A DNA stretch of 64,000 bases from a virus: the IMG/VR virus record IMGVR_UViG_3300046514_000858, positions 1 through 64,000 of that record. The stretch is one strand, 5' to 3'. Position 1 is the first letter of the stretch. Each line of letters opens with the position of its first letter. The notes below the pieces were generated by a model. It did not search any database. It was not told the origin of the DNA and saw only the letters and a program-made list of their open reading frames with translations. Positions 9,353 through 57,095 of this stretch are shown piece after piece. Both the position numbers and the translations under genes were made by a program.

Positions 9353-9595
9353 ATGAGCGATGTCATCAACAATCCCGCCCACTATGGCGGCAAGGACAAT
9401 CCCTTCGAAGTGATCAAGGTGCTCCGCGCGTGGGGCATGTTCGCCAACGCGCTTCGCTTCAATACCATCAAGTACCTCGCCCGGGCCGGGAAGAAGGACG
9501 ATCTGCTCCAAGACCTCAAGAAAGCCAAGTACTACTTGGAGGCGGAGATCGCCGAGCTGGAGATCGAGCGCGCCAAATCCGCTCCGCCAGTGTAA
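9353..9595 (+). CDS. DUF3310 protein
   Basis: INNPAHY...NTIKYLARAGKK...QDLKKA.YYL. Confidence 0.85.
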   Translation: MSDVINNPAHYGGKDNPFEVIKVLRAWGMFANALRFNTIKYLARAGKKDDLLQDLKKAKYYLEAEIAELEIERAKSAPPV

Positions 9596-9999: not shown

Positions 10000-10218
10000 A
10001 TGGCCCACATCGAACGGAAGCCGGTCGTCTCGACCAATATCGCGTCCATCGGATACGACAAAGACGCGCTGGTGCTGGAGGTGGAGTTCCGCAAGGGCGG
10101 GATCTATCGCTACAACGATGTGACCTTCGGCGAGTACAACGCCCTCATGACCGCCGAGTCGCAGGGACGGTACTTCGCCCAGTTCATCAGGGGCAAGACC
10201 TCGGAGAAGGTGGACTGA
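10000..10218 (+). CDS. KTSC domain protein
   Basis: VVSTNIASIGYD...LEVEF..G.IYRY.DV...Y..L..AES.GRYF. Confidence 0.9.
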   Translation: MAHIERKPVVSTNIASIGYDKDALVLEVEFRKGGIYRYNDVTFGEYNALMTAESQGRYFAQFIRGKTSEKVD

Positions 10219-28831: not shown

Positions 28832-28862
28832 CGATTTCTCAGGAACGAGAGCGTTCCTAATT

Positions 28863-28925
28863 ATTCCACCTCCTTCTCTCCTCTGCCCGGACCCCGCGCC
28901 GCCGAAAGGTTACGCGGGGTTTTTT
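28863..28925 (+). ncRNA. candidate anti-Shine-Dalgarno small RNA
   Basis: Perfect ATTTC-N13-CGTTCCT promoter, no ORF, CACCTCCTT at 28867-28875, intrinsic terminator at 28891-28925. Confidence 0.45.
28891..28925 (+). terminator. intrinsic terminator
   Basis: ACCCCGCG...CGCGGGGT stem plus T-run. Confidence 0.8.
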
Positions 28926-28972
28926 ATTTCCCATGCGCGTGCGCGTTCCTGTAGGTGTAGGAGAAAATCATT

Positions 28973-29593: not shown

Positions 29594-29809
29594 AATCCCC
29601 TAAGTGATCAGCCTCTGGTGCAGGGATCGAATCCCAGCGGGATCACGGCCGAGGATGAACCCTGATGAGGGGAGAACTCAGATCGCGAGTGAACTCGCCG
29701 ACAGAGAATAAGCGCCCCCGTATCTGCACGAATTCTAGACTCCCGTGCAGGGGCAAGGGTGACGAACCACCGGCCGATGCCGGGTAACAGGCTGATCACT
29801 TAGGGGATT
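29594..29809. ncRNA. 216-nt multi-hairpin element closed by a 21-bp perfect inverted repeat
   Basis: AATCCCCTAAGTGATCAGCCT (29594-29614) / AGGCTGATCACTTAGGGGATT (29789-29809); at least 5 internal hairpins; no credible ORF. Confidence 0.6.
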
Positions 29810-29876
29810 TTTGAATCGCTTTTCCTGTCATACCCTCCTCGTTCGGTCGTCTCTAATACGGCTGATGAAAGGAGAA

Positions 29877-30152
29877 ATGATGGGTGCCTCGCGACTGGTT
29901 CCGGTGATCGTGAAGTTCGTCTGCGCGGGAAACGTGGCTATGACGCCTTCCGCGTGGCAGTCGAAGTACTGCGGCAAGCCCAACGACGCGAATCTGGCCA
30001 AGCACATCGACCACCTCTCGAAGTCCTTCTTGCCCGGCGGTGTCAACGAGCACTGCGGCCCCACCAAGATCGTGTCCGCCGAGGTCATCCGTCAGTCGAC
30101 CGGTGAGGTGCTGGCGAAGTGGATGATGCCGATGTTCGAGGTGATCGCGTGA
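29877..30152 (+). CDS. hypothetical protein
   Basis: Class I promoter plus AAGGAG RBS. Confidence 0.6.
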   Translation: MMGASRLVPVIVKFVCAGNVAMTPSAWQSKYCGKPNDANLAKHIDHLSKSFLPGGVNEHCGPTKIVSAEVIRQSTGEVLAKWMMPMFEVIA

Positions 30153-30496: not shown

Positions 30497-30550
30497 ATTG
30501 TTACGCTCCGCGCGCCGGGTCGTCTTACTCTCGTGATGAATGGAGGAAAA

Positions 30551-38767: not shown

Positions 38768-39219
38768 TGGGCGCGCACATCCTTGGCGATTTCCGCACGC
38801 AGCCGCACTGCGAATTGCCCGAGTCCTACTTCACCGGCCGAGACTGCTGGGTCGACTGTCGCGCGCCCGACATGTTGCACATCTCCCGGGACTGCAACAT
38901 CGGCTGGGAGGCCCGGCTGGTCTGTCAGTCCCACAACCCGATGCCCGGCAAGTTCGGCGACGTGACCGCGCGCTCGATTATCATTCGGCCCAAGGCGTTT
39001 ATCGCCGGGTTCGCGACGCTCTACAACTGCGAGATCGGCGAGGGGTCTGTCGTGGCGCTCGGGGCCGTGGTGAGAAGTCGGATCGTGCCGCCGTGGGTGA
39101 TCGTCGAGGGGAATCCGGCGCGCATCGTGAGCAGCTTCGACCATGTGCTCGGGAAGTGGGTCGAGGTGCCGGGGGAATCAGGACTTGGGGAGAACCTTCC
39201 AATGCGTCATCGGCGGTAG
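38767..39219 (+). CDS. left-handed beta-helix O-acetyltransferase
   Basis: EIGEGSVVALGAVV...VPP..IVEGNPARIV. Confidence 0.8.
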   Translation: MGAHILGDFRTQPHCELPESYFTGRDCWVDCRAPDMLHISRDCNIGWEARLVCQSHNPMPGKFGDVTARSIIIRPKAFIAGFATLYNCEIGEGSVVALGAVVRSRIVPPWVIVEGNPARIVSSFDHVLGKWVEVPGESGLGENLPMRHRR

Positions 39220-41675: not shown

Positions 41676-42145
41676 GCTTCGATCTCGTAGCGGTCGTGCC
41701 GCACCCAGCCCTTCTTGGTCCAGAACCCCCAGCTCCGGCGGATCGCGCCGCAGAAGACTAGAGTCACGATGGGGCGGCTGCTGACCCAAGTGATGGCGTG
41801 CCTGTCTTCGGCGCGCTTCCAGTTCACCCACCGGACGTGCCGCGGCTCACGGTCGGCATCACAGTCGTCGCACCGGCACGGGCCGCAGCAGGGTTCGGTC
41901 GGCACGTCCTCGACGTAGCTGCCCCAGAGCACGAGGGACAGGAACGACCACGGATGGTCGTGCAGGTCCCGCTGCTGGTCCGGGCGGTAGATCAGGTGCA
42001 GCTTGATGGAGAACCACGGGGTGAGGAGAATGTTCAGGCGGCGCATGTACACGCTGCGCCCGTCGCCGATGATCTTCCAGTACCACCAGCCCCACTTGCG
42101 AGCGGCCTTGGGGTCGGTCAGCTCGTCGCCTTCCAGCTTCTCCAT
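41672..42145 (-). CDS. cupin-fold phage protein
   Basis: LH.I...D..RDLHDHPW.F.S..L.G.Y.E...H...WGF. Confidence 0.75.
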   Translation of the reverse strand: MEKLEGDELTDPKAARKWGWWYWKIIGDGRSVYMRRLNILLTPWFSIKLHLIYRPDQQRDLHDHPWSFLSLVLWGSYVEDVPTEPCCGPCRCDDCDADREPRHVRWVNWKRAEDRHAITWVSSRPIVTLVFCGAIRRSWGFWTKKGWVRHDRYEIEA

Positions 42146-42222
42146 GTCTACAAGAACGCGCGCATTTTCCTGTAATGCGCATGGGCGTGGGTCGTCTTAT
42201 AGGCGTGATGAAAGGAGCCGAC

Positions 42223-42441
42223 ATGACCTGCGAAAACTGTGGGAAGCGCACGATCACCGCGACGTTCGTCTACTGTTGCGCCCGCGCGACTTTCCTGCCC
42301 ATCGCCTGCTCGGCCAAGTGCCAGAAGGCCCTCGGCGGTGTCGACCCGACCAAGGTCGCCGACTGCGGTGAACACTGTGCCTGCGGGGACTGCGTCGACT
42401 GTGATCTGGCGGCCCGCGACAAGGCCGCGCTCAAGAGCTAG
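42223..42441 (+). CDS. Cys-rich small protein
   Basis: Class I promoter at 42171 plus AAGGAG RBS. Confidence 0.55.
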   Translation: MTCENCGKRTITATFVYCCARATFLPIACSAKCQKALGGVDPTKVADCGEHCACGDCVDCDLAARDKAALKS

Positions 42442-42450
42442 GAGACTGCG

Positions 42451-43053
42451 ATGAAACAGTGGGATCTCCACCGGACCGAGCTACTTCAAGATCGCGAGTG
42501 GTCGAAGCTGAAGCGCTTCCTCGACGACGAGTCGGATCTCGCCGAGTTGAATGGCAACCGCACTGCCATCCAGAACCGCGTGATCTGTTACGTAGCGGTC
42601 TGGGCCGGGCTCCGGCGCGCCGAGATCGCGAGCCTCGACCTCGACGACTTGTACCTGACGAACGACTCTCCCTTCCTCGTCGTGAAGGACGGCAAGGGCG
42701 GCAAGCGCCGGGAGGTCATGATCTCCCCGATCCTCCGGGCCATCCTTAAGAAGTTCATTCGCGGCATGGAACCGGGCCCCGTCTTCCGGCCCCAGCGCGG
42801 CGAGCGGTACACGGGCAACGGCCTCTGGCGCGTGTGGGCGGTCGCCTGCGCGGGCGCGGGGATCCTGCCTCGGTCGATCCACAAGGCCCGTCACTTCTAC
42901 GGTCAGAAGCAGTACGAGGCGACCAACGATCTCCGCTTCGTCCAGAAGCAACTCGGCCACTCCCGGATCGTGACCACTCAGGTCTACGTCGAGATTTCCA
43001 ATACGAAGGCGGTGGAGAATCTGGCGGGCCTCGACAAGGTGCTGCGGGCTTAG
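42451..43053 (+). CDS. tyrosine recombinase (catalytic domain only)
   Basis: GLRRAEI, GKGGK.R, H..RH, LGHS...TQVY. Confidence 0.9.
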   Translation: MKQWDLHRTELLQDREWSKLKRFLDDESDLAELNGNRTAIQNRVICYVAVWAGLRRAEIASLDLDDLYLTNDSPFLVVKDGKGGKRREVMISPILRAILKKFIRGMEPGPVFRPQRGERYTGNGLWRVWAVACAGAGILPRSIHKARHFYGQKQYEATNDLRFVQKQLGHSRIVTTQVYVEISNTKAVENLAGLDKVLRA

Positions 43054-43337
43054 GCTATTGCGGCCTGTGGGGTGCGGTTACCTTTTATCTTATTACATTT
43101 AGCGCAGAGAACCTGCAACTTCCCTTCCTTCTCCTCCTGCTCGTAGCGCCTCACGCGGCCGAGCTGGGAGAACGCCCGGAGGTACCAGTCCCGCGGCTTC
43201 TTGTGGTCGACTTCGAGCTTGTTCTTCTTCGAGCCCTTGGTGCCGCAGTGGACGCACTTCCGACCGAGGCGATCAATGATCGCTTCCCGGCGGACCTGCG
43301 CCCGCAACGCCCGCTGTCGTGTCTCTAGGTTGCCCAC
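43050..43337 (-). CDS. HNH endonuclease
   Basis: CVHCG...LEVDH...LC.KCN..K. Confidence 0.8.
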   Translation of the reverse strand: MGNLETRQRALRAQVRREAIIDRLGRKCVHCGTKGSKKNKLEVDHKKPRDWYLRAFSQLGRVRRYEQEEKEGKLQVLCAKCNKIKGNRTPQAAIA

Positions 43338-43614
43338 TCTCTAAGGAATGCTCGGATCCTGCAGCTTTCAACGCCGCCATGATTTTCGCCATCTCTGTGG
43401 CGTCCTTGATCGTGCCCTGCTGGTCTCGCTCGGTGATGAGACGGTCGACGATCTGCCGCGGGCCCGGCCCCGGCAGGTCGACGTAGGCGTTCATGAAGAA
43501 CTCCAGCGCCGCGGCGATCACCCGGCCCCGTCCCATGCGGGTGGCCGTGCACAGATGGACCAGCACGTCGTCGGCATCTCCCACCATTTGGATTGTTTCG
43601 AGTTCGTGCTTCAT
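43273..43614 (-). CDS. hypothetical protein (possible ribbon-helix-helix)
   Basis: Leaderless Class II start; overlaps the HNH gene 5' end. Confidence 0.45.
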   Translation of the reverse strand: MKHELETIQMVGDADDVLVHLCTATRMGRGRVIAAALEFFMNAYVDLPGPGPRQIVDRLITERDQQGTIKDATEMAKIMAALKAAGSEHSLESGQPRDTTAGVAGAGPPGSDH

Positions 43615-43652
43615 ATTTACAGGAACGCTTGTGTGCGCGCGTTCTTATTGGC

Positions 43653-43991
43653 ATGGAAGCAACGCCCAAAGAAATCGCGCTGAAGACCATCGCCCGGATG
43701 CGGCCCGAAGTCGCCCGCCGGTCGCTGCTGGTGGGCCGCTGGTACAACGGCGGCTTCTACGTCGCGCCCGACTTCTCGTGCTGCTGCCCCTTCGGTGCTG
43801 GCGTGATCACCAATCCCCGCCACGCAACAGCCGAGTCCTACTGCGCGGTCGACGAGGAGGTCAGCCGCGCGTTCCGGATGGCCGGGTTCTACGACGCCGA
43901 GCAGATGCTCCTCTCCAAGTTCGTGGCCGGACTGCCCGAGCTCACGCAGGAGGAGATCCGCGCGGCCATCGCGGAGGCGATGATCCAGTGA
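43653..43991 (+). CDS. hypothetical protein
   Basis: Leaderless Class II start (CGTTCTT at 43640). Confidence 0.55.
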   Translation: MEATPKEIALKTIARMRPEVARRSLLVGRWYNGGFYVAPDFSCCCPFGAGVITNPRHATAESYCAVDEEVSRAFRMAGFYDAEQMLLSKFVAGLPELTQEEIRAAIAEAMIQ

Positions 43992-44259
43992 AGAAGATCG
44001 AGATGTTCTACGTCCAGCGCAGCACGGACGGCCACGTTTTGTACATCCGCAAGGCTCCCAACAAGCGGTGGGAGGCGAAGATCGACCAGATCCACGGGTC
44101 GGCGTACCTGTTCGAAGACATCGCGCCGGGCACAGGGGGCTGGTATTTTTTCGAGCCCGTCGTTTCTCCGACACAGATCAAGAACATCGACGTCACAGAA
44201 GTATCGCTCGTGGCGAAAGCGCCACACGGAAAAAGATTTCTATTGAAAGGAGATAGGTC

Positions 44260-44694
44260 ATGAAAAGAGGTTTCACGCTCTTTGAAGGCATGGTTGTCTT
44301 CGCCGCCGTCGCGATCCTCGCACTCCTCTTCCTGCCGTTCGTCCTGTGCCTCTTCCCGTCCGGCTGCGATCCGTCGTATTCCGACGGCGACCGGGTCGGA
44401 GTGGTGACGAAGCTGAGCCACAGGGGCCTCAGCATGAAGAGCTGGGAAGGCCAGCTCAACGTGGGGAGCACGAGTACCGACGGGAACGGTGTCGCCGTTC
44501 CCACCACATGGGCGTTCAGCGTCGAAGACGAGGCCGTCGTGCAGCGGCTCAAGGAGGTCGCCCAGACCGGCCAGCGAGCAACGCTCCACTACCACCAGTA
44601 TCTGGTCAAACCGTGGCGATTCGACACGGAATACGTGATCGACAGCGTGGACGTCGAGAAACCGGACGGCACGAACAAGAGCCTCCGACACTGA
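44260..44694 (+). CDS. membrane protein with prepilin-type N-terminus
   Basis: MKRG|FTLFE plus hydrophobic helix, then SGC and YSDG.RVG...K.S..G...WEG.L. Confidence 0.65.
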   Translation: MKRGFTLFEGMVVFAAVAILALLFLPFVLCLFPSGCDPSYSDGDRVGVVTKLSHRGLSMKSWEGQLNVGSTSTDGNGVAVPTTWAFSVEDEAVVQRLKEVAQTGQRATLHYHQYLVKPWRFDTEYVIDSVDVEKPDGTNKSLRH

Positions 44695-56114: not shown

Positions 56115-57095
56115 ATGGCGCAGAATGTTGGCCTCGGCATGCGGTCTCACATCGGCTTCGGAGACGAAGTCGTTTGGGGAAGCGCAGTCGCCCGCACCCA
56201 CTTCATCGAACTCATCTCCGAAAGCATCTCGAAGCAGGTCGCGCGGATCGAGTCCAACTCCGTTCTCCGCCGCGGCGTCCTGAACGACCACGTCATCGCC
56301 GGGATGATCTCCGTGGCGGGCGATCTGGTCTTCGACGCGACGTACGGCGGATGGCTCAAGATCGCCAAGCACGCCTTCGGCTCCGTCGACACGACCCAGC
56401 CGGACGTGACGAACGCGCCCACCGCGTACCAGCACGTCTTCACAATCTCCGACACCCCGCTCGCGGGCATGACCATGGAGGTCTTCCGCGACAGCTCCCA
56501 GTTCGTGACGGAGCCCAACAAGGCGTTCGTCTACCGGGGCATGAAGGTGTCGAGCATCGAGTTCTCGTGCGGCGTCGACGAGATCCTGCGCGTGACCGCG
56601 AGCCTGATCGGCACCGACGAGACGCGCGAGGCGAAGAGCACGCCCTCGTACGGCACCTCGAAGGTCTCCGTCTACCATCAGGGCATCGTCAAGTGGAACG
56701 ACGTCGACGTCGAAGTCGACCACTTCACCCTGAAGCTCGACAACGGCTTCGGCCCCCGTCCCAAGCTGGGGTCCCAGTACAGCCGCGAGCCGGTGCCCGA
56801 GAACAAGCTGTCCCTGTCCGGCTCCTTCGAGATGGAGTTCGCCTCGTGGGCCGAGTACGACGACTTCTCGGCGACGACCCAGCGCGAGTTCAAGGTCTCC
56901 TTCACGGGCGACCTCATCGCCGCGGGGGTCTACGAGGAGATCATCCTGACCTGCCCCGTCTCGCTGCTCGACAACGTGCGCGTCCTGATCGACAAGCCCG
57001 GCCGCATCAAGATCGCGGCCGACTTCAAGGCGTACCGCACCACGCTGGCGAACGAGTGCACCATGACCGTGCGCAACACGGACACCGTGATCTGA
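56115..57095 (+). CDS. tail tube (major tail) protein
   Basis: G.E..WG...E..SES...YQHVFT...T.E...G.KV...F...L; no sheath gene seen. Confidence 0.8.
   Translation: MAQNVGLGMRSHIGFGDEVVWGSAVARTHFIELISESISKQVARIESNSVLRRGVLNDHVIAGMISVAGDLVFDATYGGWLKIAKHAFGSVDTTQPDVTNAPTAYQHVFTISDTPLAGMTMEVFRDSSQFVTEPNKAFVYRGMKVSSIEFSCGVDEILRVTASLIGTDETREAKSTPSYGTSKVSVYHQGIVKWNDVDVEVDHFTLKLDNGFGPRPKLGSQYSREPVPENKLSLSGSFEMEFASWAEYDDFSATTQREFKVSFTGDLIAAGVYEEIILTCPVSLLDNVRVLIDKPGRIKIAADFKAYRTTLANECTMTVRNTDTVI

Follow-up and report, generated by a model that had tools for sequence, protein, structure and literature searches.

A gene-free stretch of 216 nt in an uncultured phage begins and ends in the two halves of a perfect inverted repeat, and it raises the question of what such a stretch is for. 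The phage is known as a 93,745-bp IMG/VR virus record (IMGVR_UViG_3300046514_000858) with direct terminal repeats. We analyzed the first 64 kb of this record, which we call the window; it is 62% G+C and carries nearly all of its genes on the + strand. From a comparison of the element (29594–29809) with its counterpart in one related phage, we think that the 216 bases probably encode a folded RNA that is outside the RNA catalogues, and that the relative keeps the fold through matching base changes. On balance we favor reading the element as a structured RNA module that stands by itself, about 216 nt long and made from the + strand, which founds a family of two members.

Pfam matches in the phage include a portal-MuF fusion, an HK97-type capsid protein and siphovirus tail proteins, as well as RecA, a gp32-like single-strand binding protein and SbcCD, and judged by these matches the virus is a tailed, siphovirus-like bacteriophage. 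We looked for relatives through proteins, using the gene upstream of the element, a 326-aa protein (56115–57095) and a TerL alignment. This yielded one related phage, also uncultured (IMGVR_UViG_3300028024_000105, 96.8 kb, called G001 here), and one 18-kb fragment that does not have the element. The genomes of the two phages are collinear and most of their proteins are 40–70% identical. The 326-aa protein, which is probably the tail tube, is the best-conserved structural protein, with 73% identity to its G001 homologue. Its sole match among 50,697 GenBank phage records is in Haloarcula hispanica tailed virus 1 and is only 25% identical, so this is a lineage without a cultured relative. The protein atlas offered no host taxon.

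An earlier note on this DNA had described a perfect 21-bp inverted repeat, and that description was accurate: the arms are 21 nt long, 100% complementary and 174 nt apart, with a multi-hairpin core between them. The arm sequence occurs at only these two sites in the window (0.00 expected in shuffles), and the element is the only perfect long inverted repeat spanning up to 3 kb in the whole window. The + strand has a fold energy of −100.4 kcal/mol (z −5.8 against dinucleotide shuffles) and the − strand of −99.1 kcal/mol (z −5.7); the copy in G001 is also more stable than its shuffles (z −5.0). What had been said about the edges was right as well. The element starts 3 nt past the TAG stop codon of the upstream ORF, a T-run stands at its end, and neither phage shows a target-site duplication (the flanks are GAG and TTT in the window, ATGA and TCGA in G001). 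By both blastn and a covariance model, each of the two genomes has one copy.

The G001 copy, at 38870–39082, has 75% nucleotide identity over element positions 3–216. Whole-genome blastn between the two phages gave 37 aligned segments, and the element is one of them, near the top of the 66–79% identity range. Two other aligned segments seemed to be intergenic and were considered as further RNAs. Both are ORFs that had been missed by the ORF list, which leaves the element as the only non-coding DNA that is conserved between the two phages. The base of the closing helix, P1, marks both limits of the homology. The neighbors differ: the G001 copy has small ORFs on either side and sits in a run of co-directional small genes that is non-syntenic with the site in the window phage, within a region bounded by homologues of window genes 9353–9595 and 10000–10218. 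Since the neighboring genes are different in the two phages, the module would work independently of any particular neighbor, and the element is better conserved in sequence than most of the two phages' proteins even as its neighbors change, which points to a function of its own. As a separate observation, a small ORF that our GC3-based ORF filter missed is conserved at 44004–44260 of the window, between 43991 and the gene at 44260, with about 70% nucleotide identity to G001 66963–67074.

We obtained a consensus fold with RNAalifold on the two sequences. The fold is derived from the same pair that it describes, so the covariation counts that follow are suggestive and are not a statistical test. 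The consensus has 60 pairs in eight helices (Table 1), and all of them form in both phages (120 of 120 pair cells are standard). Twelve of the 60 pairs are changed on both sides, five of them in the closing stem P1 and seven in inner helices (three in P4, two in P5 and one each in P7 and P8). When the 3' partners were slid by 1–3 columns as a control, 31–43% of the cells paired and 0–2 double changes were seen. Outside the variable tip, 22 of the 114 paired positions differ between the phages, and every substitution keeps the pairing. Of the 31 columns in the hairpin tip of P5, 24 differ, and both phages nonetheless form a hairpin there. P1 has no wobble or mismatch in either one, being perfect over 21 bp here and over 19 bp in G001.

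About 50 unpaired nucleotides are invariant. Three unpaired blocks are identical in both phages, namely CGACAGAGAATAAG, the loop of P7 with its TCTAGA palindrome (apart from one A/G difference) and GCAAGGGTGACGAA. The AGAAU of the junction could pair with the AUUCU of the P7 loop over 5 bp, and the GUUCU of G001 would keep this as a wobble.

Table 1. Positions of the element's predicted parts and of the features on either side of it (window coordinates; P1–P8 are helices of the consensus fold).
Feature	Position	Strand	Observation
Promoter-like motif ATTTC-N13-CGTTCCT	28926–28950	+	Heads the upstream ORF; hairpin and T-run just before it
Upstream ORF, 205 aa	28973–29590	+	No Pfam or PHROG family; G001 homologue with 61% aa identity
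P1 extension as RNA	back to 29591	+	G·U and A-U pairs possible
P1, 5' arm	29594–29614	+	21-nt perfect repeat; five pairs doubly changed in G001, still pairing
P2, 5' strand GGTGC	29617–29621	+	Pairs with 29712–29716; invariant; conserved U·G is a C·A mismatch on the − strand
P3 hairpin (GGGAT, 3-nt loop, ATCCC)	29623–29635	+	Stem invariant; loop CGA here, CGC in G001
P4-P5 long hairpin	29637–29698	+	Base (29637–29649 with 29685–29698) covaries: three double changes in P4, two in P5
P4-P5 tip	29650–29680	+	Hairpin kept, sequence not; G001 forms its own hairpin
Purine-rich junction CGACAGAGAATAA	29699–29711	+	100% identical in both phages
P2, 3' strand GCGCC	29712–29716	+	Consensus fold
P6 (CCC 29717–29719 with GGG 29757–29759), enclosing P7	29717–29759	+	Consensus fold
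P7 stem	29724–29730 with 29744–29750	+	One pair doubly changed
P7 loop, 13 nt	29731–29743	+	Palindrome TCTAGA; identical save one A/G
Single-stranded block TGACGAA...	29760–29769	+	GCAAGGGTGACGAA, 100% identical in both phages
P8 hairpin CCGGC-CGAT-GCCGG	29770–29783	+	G001 has CCGCC-tgat-GGCGG: one pair doubly changed
P1, 3' arm	29789–29809	+	Perfect repeat; consensus fold; covariation
T5 run directly after P1	29808–29812	+	In the window phage; absent in G001
Promoter-like motif TGTCAT-N16-CGTC	29826–29851	+	17 nt past the element; heads ORF 29880–30152

The hairpins that the earlier note had listed between the arms held up in part. GGGAT-cga-ATCCC, CTGCACG-N13-CGTGCAG and CCGGC-cgat-GCCGG are present and are kept in G001, but the three others are outside the conserved fold: GAG-gggagaa-CTC sits in the variable tip, GCGAG-tgaa-CTCGC gives way to a longer covarying helix, and GGT-gacga-ACC falls in a conserved single-stranded block. 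Its reading of the stretch as a structured non-coding RNA, for which it had proposed a covariation check on homologues, is supported by the 60 of 60 pairs kept in the sole homologue, the 12 of them that are changed on both sides, and the lack of a conserved reading frame.

That no reading frame is conserved across the element is seen from the alignment, which has 2-nt and 1-nt indels that shift the frames. ORFs on the − strand over the element are unrelated between the two phages, and similar peptides appear in all frames only where the nucleotides are identical. We rejected a small ORF as a candidate: an 18-codon frame on the + strand lacks a start codon in G001, and frames on the − strand are thrown out of register by the indels. 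As for the strand of the RNA, the flanking genes are all on the + strand. Four pair cells are G·U or U·G (one U·G that is conserved in both phages and three cells in single sequences), and on the − strand each of them would read as a C·A mismatch. The consensus fold reaches −94.05 kcal/mol when computed for the + strand and −88.75 kcal/mol for the − strand, which loses P2. The G·U pairs and the gene direction mildly favor an RNA made from the + strand; this preference is modest, with a − strand RNA or a fold in single-stranded DNA as the alternatives.

The Rfam scan that had been proposed matched the element to no family. With Rfam 15 (cmscan, permissive filters), the 1.4-kb neighborhood and each element alone gave best scores of 10–21 bits against gathering thresholds of 37–114, and no family was common to both copies. 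ARAGORN found no tRNA or tmRNA in the window. Several specific candidates were tried and rejected. A tRNA-like RNA is recognized by a cloverleaf with a T-loop (U54-A58), and the T-arm-like GGGATCGAATCCC, which might suggest a T-loop or tRNA mimic, has A for T54 and becomes GGGATCGCATCCC in G001. For a hammerhead ribozyme, CUGAUGAG is present only in the variable tip of the window copy and is absent from G001. An integron attC site does not fit a single copy with no R' and R'' boxes and a recombinase that is too small. Antisense regulation of phage mRNAs was set aside when the conserved loops were found to have no conserved antisense target in either phage genome.

No third copy turned up when 2.9 million viral contigs, JGI metagenomes and 185,579 genomes were scanned for exact motifs. 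Within IMG/VR, exact or gapped motif scans returned only G001 or chance matches in coding DNA; the scan of JGI metagenomes recovered nothing beyond the contig from which G001 itself comes, and the GTDB genome scans returned nothing or chance matches. There was also no copy by blastn in GenBank phages or PLSDB plasmids. As far as these scans can tell, the family is currently one of two members, the window phage and G001, among the collections searched.

Two kinds of promoter-like motif are found around the element. ATTTC-N13-CGTTCCT has 5 sites in the window (26600, 28834, 28926, 34717 and 38059) against 0.28 expected, and the ECF-sigma-like TGWHAY-N16-CGTC has 18 against 1.4 expected. With the site at 28926 heading the upstream ORF and the site at 29826 standing after the element, the element in the window phage is predicted to make up the untranslated 3' portion of a transcription unit with a single gene, and the T5 run may terminate the transcript, though only in the window phage. 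The setting in G001 is another one. The next gene begins 29 nt downstream of the element, there is no T-run and we found none of the window phage's promoter-like motifs near the element, so transcription must read through there. The G001 homologue of the upstream gene is 15 kb away from the G001 element and runs straight into another ORF.

Some further observations concern these motifs and the upstream gene. The TGWHAY-N16-CGTC sites span 13481–42196, and 17 of the 18 point along the + strand and stand where genes of the accessory region begin; in G001 the motif is found at only 7 sites, with another spacer consensus. The 205-aa upstream protein has a Cys-rich, SEC-C-like C-terminus (CxC...CCG), falls in only three clusters among 5.8 billion proteins, and is among the few variable-region genes common with G001. 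A further homologue, 49% identical, is on a 2.3-kb contig.

From the conserved fold and its setting, we infer how the RNA would be transcribed, processed and recognized. In the fold, a perfect closing helix P1 of 19–24 bp opens into a multi-way junction bearing three parts: a domain made of P2, P3 and the variable P4-P5, a domain made of P6 and P7 with the conserved 13-nt loop, and P8. Three invariant single-stranded blocks connect these parts. The transcript in the window phage would run from the motif at 28926 through the upstream ORF and the element to the T-run, and in G001 the element would be made within the run of co-directional small genes. Enzymes of the RNase III type act on perfect double-stranded RNA of about 20 bp, and we believe that such a double-strand-specific RNase would cut or protect P1 and leave a stable core RNA, whose invariant loops and junctions would bind a partner or make a tertiary fold. 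The length of P1 is kept while five of its pairs are replaced, which points to a helix that would process or stabilize the transcript and deliver the conserved core. A putative RNase III-type processing or stabilizing site in P1 (at least 19 bp) is plausible for a perfect helix of this length, in line with the earlier note's suggestion of release by dsRNA processing. It is somewhat unlikely that we are dealing with a new class of phage non-coding RNA in which a core of about 170 nt is excised from mRNAs at P1 and acts alone. Such an independent core might be a decoy or inhibitor of a host protein (in anti-defense or take-over), might self-associate via the palindromic UCUAGA loop, or might be a new ribozyme.

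Phage genomes hold many folded RNAs and some of them are remarkable, such as ROOL and GOLLD, phage-borne structured RNAs that form nanocages (PMC12286853). Like the orphan phage RNAs (rnaC and rnaD of T4, also called species 1 and 2, as well as ROOL and GOLLD), the element is non-coding and multi-helix, has compensatory changes and invariant loops and junctions, is located among small early or accessory genes, and is without a known function. At 216 nt, however, it is far smaller than ROOL and GOLLD. It also differs from the orphan RNAs in that it is not beside tRNA genes (the window has none), has no Rfam sequence or model match, has an unusually long perfect closing helix, and has only two known members. 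The element is compact and sharply bounded, with a defined secondary structure and invariant loops, and its lineage has no other conserved non-coding sequence. Its small size makes it amenable to direct biochemical and structural tests.

Among the other explanations, the one that survives best is a purely cis-acting module at the 3' end of the upstream gene, that is, a large terminator, an exonuclease block or a T7-like RNase III site, with no function in trans. We regard it as unlikely. The element does sit after one gene and ahead of the promoter-like motif that follows, T5 comes directly after P1, and the motif at 30499 has an ordinary hairpin and T-run terminator directly before it, in the equivalent slot to the one that P1 and its T-run hold. 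As an intrinsic terminator, though, P1 would have an atypical "loop" of 174 nt, and the T-run is absent in G001, where read-through is required to reach the next gene. In addition, the helix alone would suffice for such a role, which leaves the roughly 50 invariant unpaired nucleotides and the four conserved, covarying inner helices unexplained. Comparison with the known RNase III helices gives a similar picture. The early intergenic sites of T7 and the stems flanking 16S and 23S rRNA are likewise helices of about two turns, located between genes or flanking an RNA within a longer transcript. The T7 sites, however, are hairpins of about 60 nt with an internal bubble and no structured cargo, whereas the helix of the element encloses a conserved 174-nt core; its cleavage is putative.

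Two readings place the cause at the DNA level. The wobble-free and mismatch-free P1 could also stem from DNA-level homogenization of inverted repeats, and the sharp homology edges, the differing location and the wobble-free P1 would be just as expected if the element were mobile DNA or an inverton. Together we give these two readings about a fifth of the probability.

A non-autonomous, MITE-like mobile element with 21-bp terminal inverted repeats, similar to Correia or ERIC elements, that moved within the lineage is the first of the two, and we think it decidedly unlikely. It would account for the perfect terminal repeats, for G001 homology that starts and stops at the repeat ends, and for non-syntenic sites in two otherwise collinear genomes, and the arms change together, as ends bound by one transposase would. 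Correia and ERIC MITEs are, like the element, intergenic, with a length of 100–250 bp and terminal inverted repeats of 20–26 bp, and Correia transcripts fold into long hairpins that are cut by RNase III. But MITEs are multi-copy and have target duplications such as TA, while the element occurs once per genome, is flanked by no target-site duplication in the window phage or in G001, and encloses several covarying helices in an interior that is as conserved as its ends. The scans of viral contigs, metagenomes, genomes, phages and plasmids gave no extra copy, and no transposase was identified among the neighboring or shared ORFs scanned (a subset of all ORFs). The earlier note had named a dispersed MITE as an outcome that would count against an RNA, and one copy per genome is what we found.

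In the second, which is very improbable, the 21-bp repeats would be the crossover sites at which a site-specific recombinase flips the 174-bp core. The length and spacing of the repeats are typical of invertons, recombination would maintain the perfect identity of the arms, and both phages encode a 200-aa tyrosine recombinase (PF00589, E 2.5e-20) in the size class of FimB and FimE. Its gene in the window (42451–43053) is, however, 12.6 kb from the element. The core has neither of the promoter-like motifs, the downstream gene has its own motif outside the segment, and, with respect to transcription, the core is oriented alike in the two phages. The seven compensatory changes in the inner helices are also left unexplained at the level of double-stranded DNA.

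A retron msr-msd RNA or a CsrB-like protein sponge, both suggested by the earlier note, is barely credible. The element is like an msr-msd RNA (about 150–250 nt, structured and closed by terminal arms) in that its 21-bp complementary arms resemble a1/a2, although that feature alone does not define the family; retrons have an adjoining reverse transcriptase, and the absence of one from the window, which had already been remarked on, extends to the full 93.7-kb record (no PF00078 match at E <= 1, while control genomes scored). The sevenfold GAA(C/T) of the window copy is real (P about 0.001 against shuffles) but is found once in G001, and GGA is at chance frequency (5 occurrences against 5.2 expected) and in none of the conserved loops, which are CGA/CGC, the 13-nt loop without GGA, and CGAU/UGAU.

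Apart from the structured RNA module that we favor, two other places in the window deserve a mention. Downstream of the ATTTC-N13-CGTTCCT site at 28834 come a pyrimidine tract, CCACCTCCTTCTCTCC, and a strong hairpin and T-run at about 28895–28926, with no ORF; a short RNA could be made here, immediately ahead of the gene before the element. The tyrosine recombinase gene, which has a 51% homologue in G001, lies in a 1.5-kb segment (42141–43657) that holds divergent small genes and is bounded by a 24-nt, 88% inverted repeat (42141–42164 and 43634–43657), for which we saw no clear equivalent in G001. This segment may be invertible or excisable.
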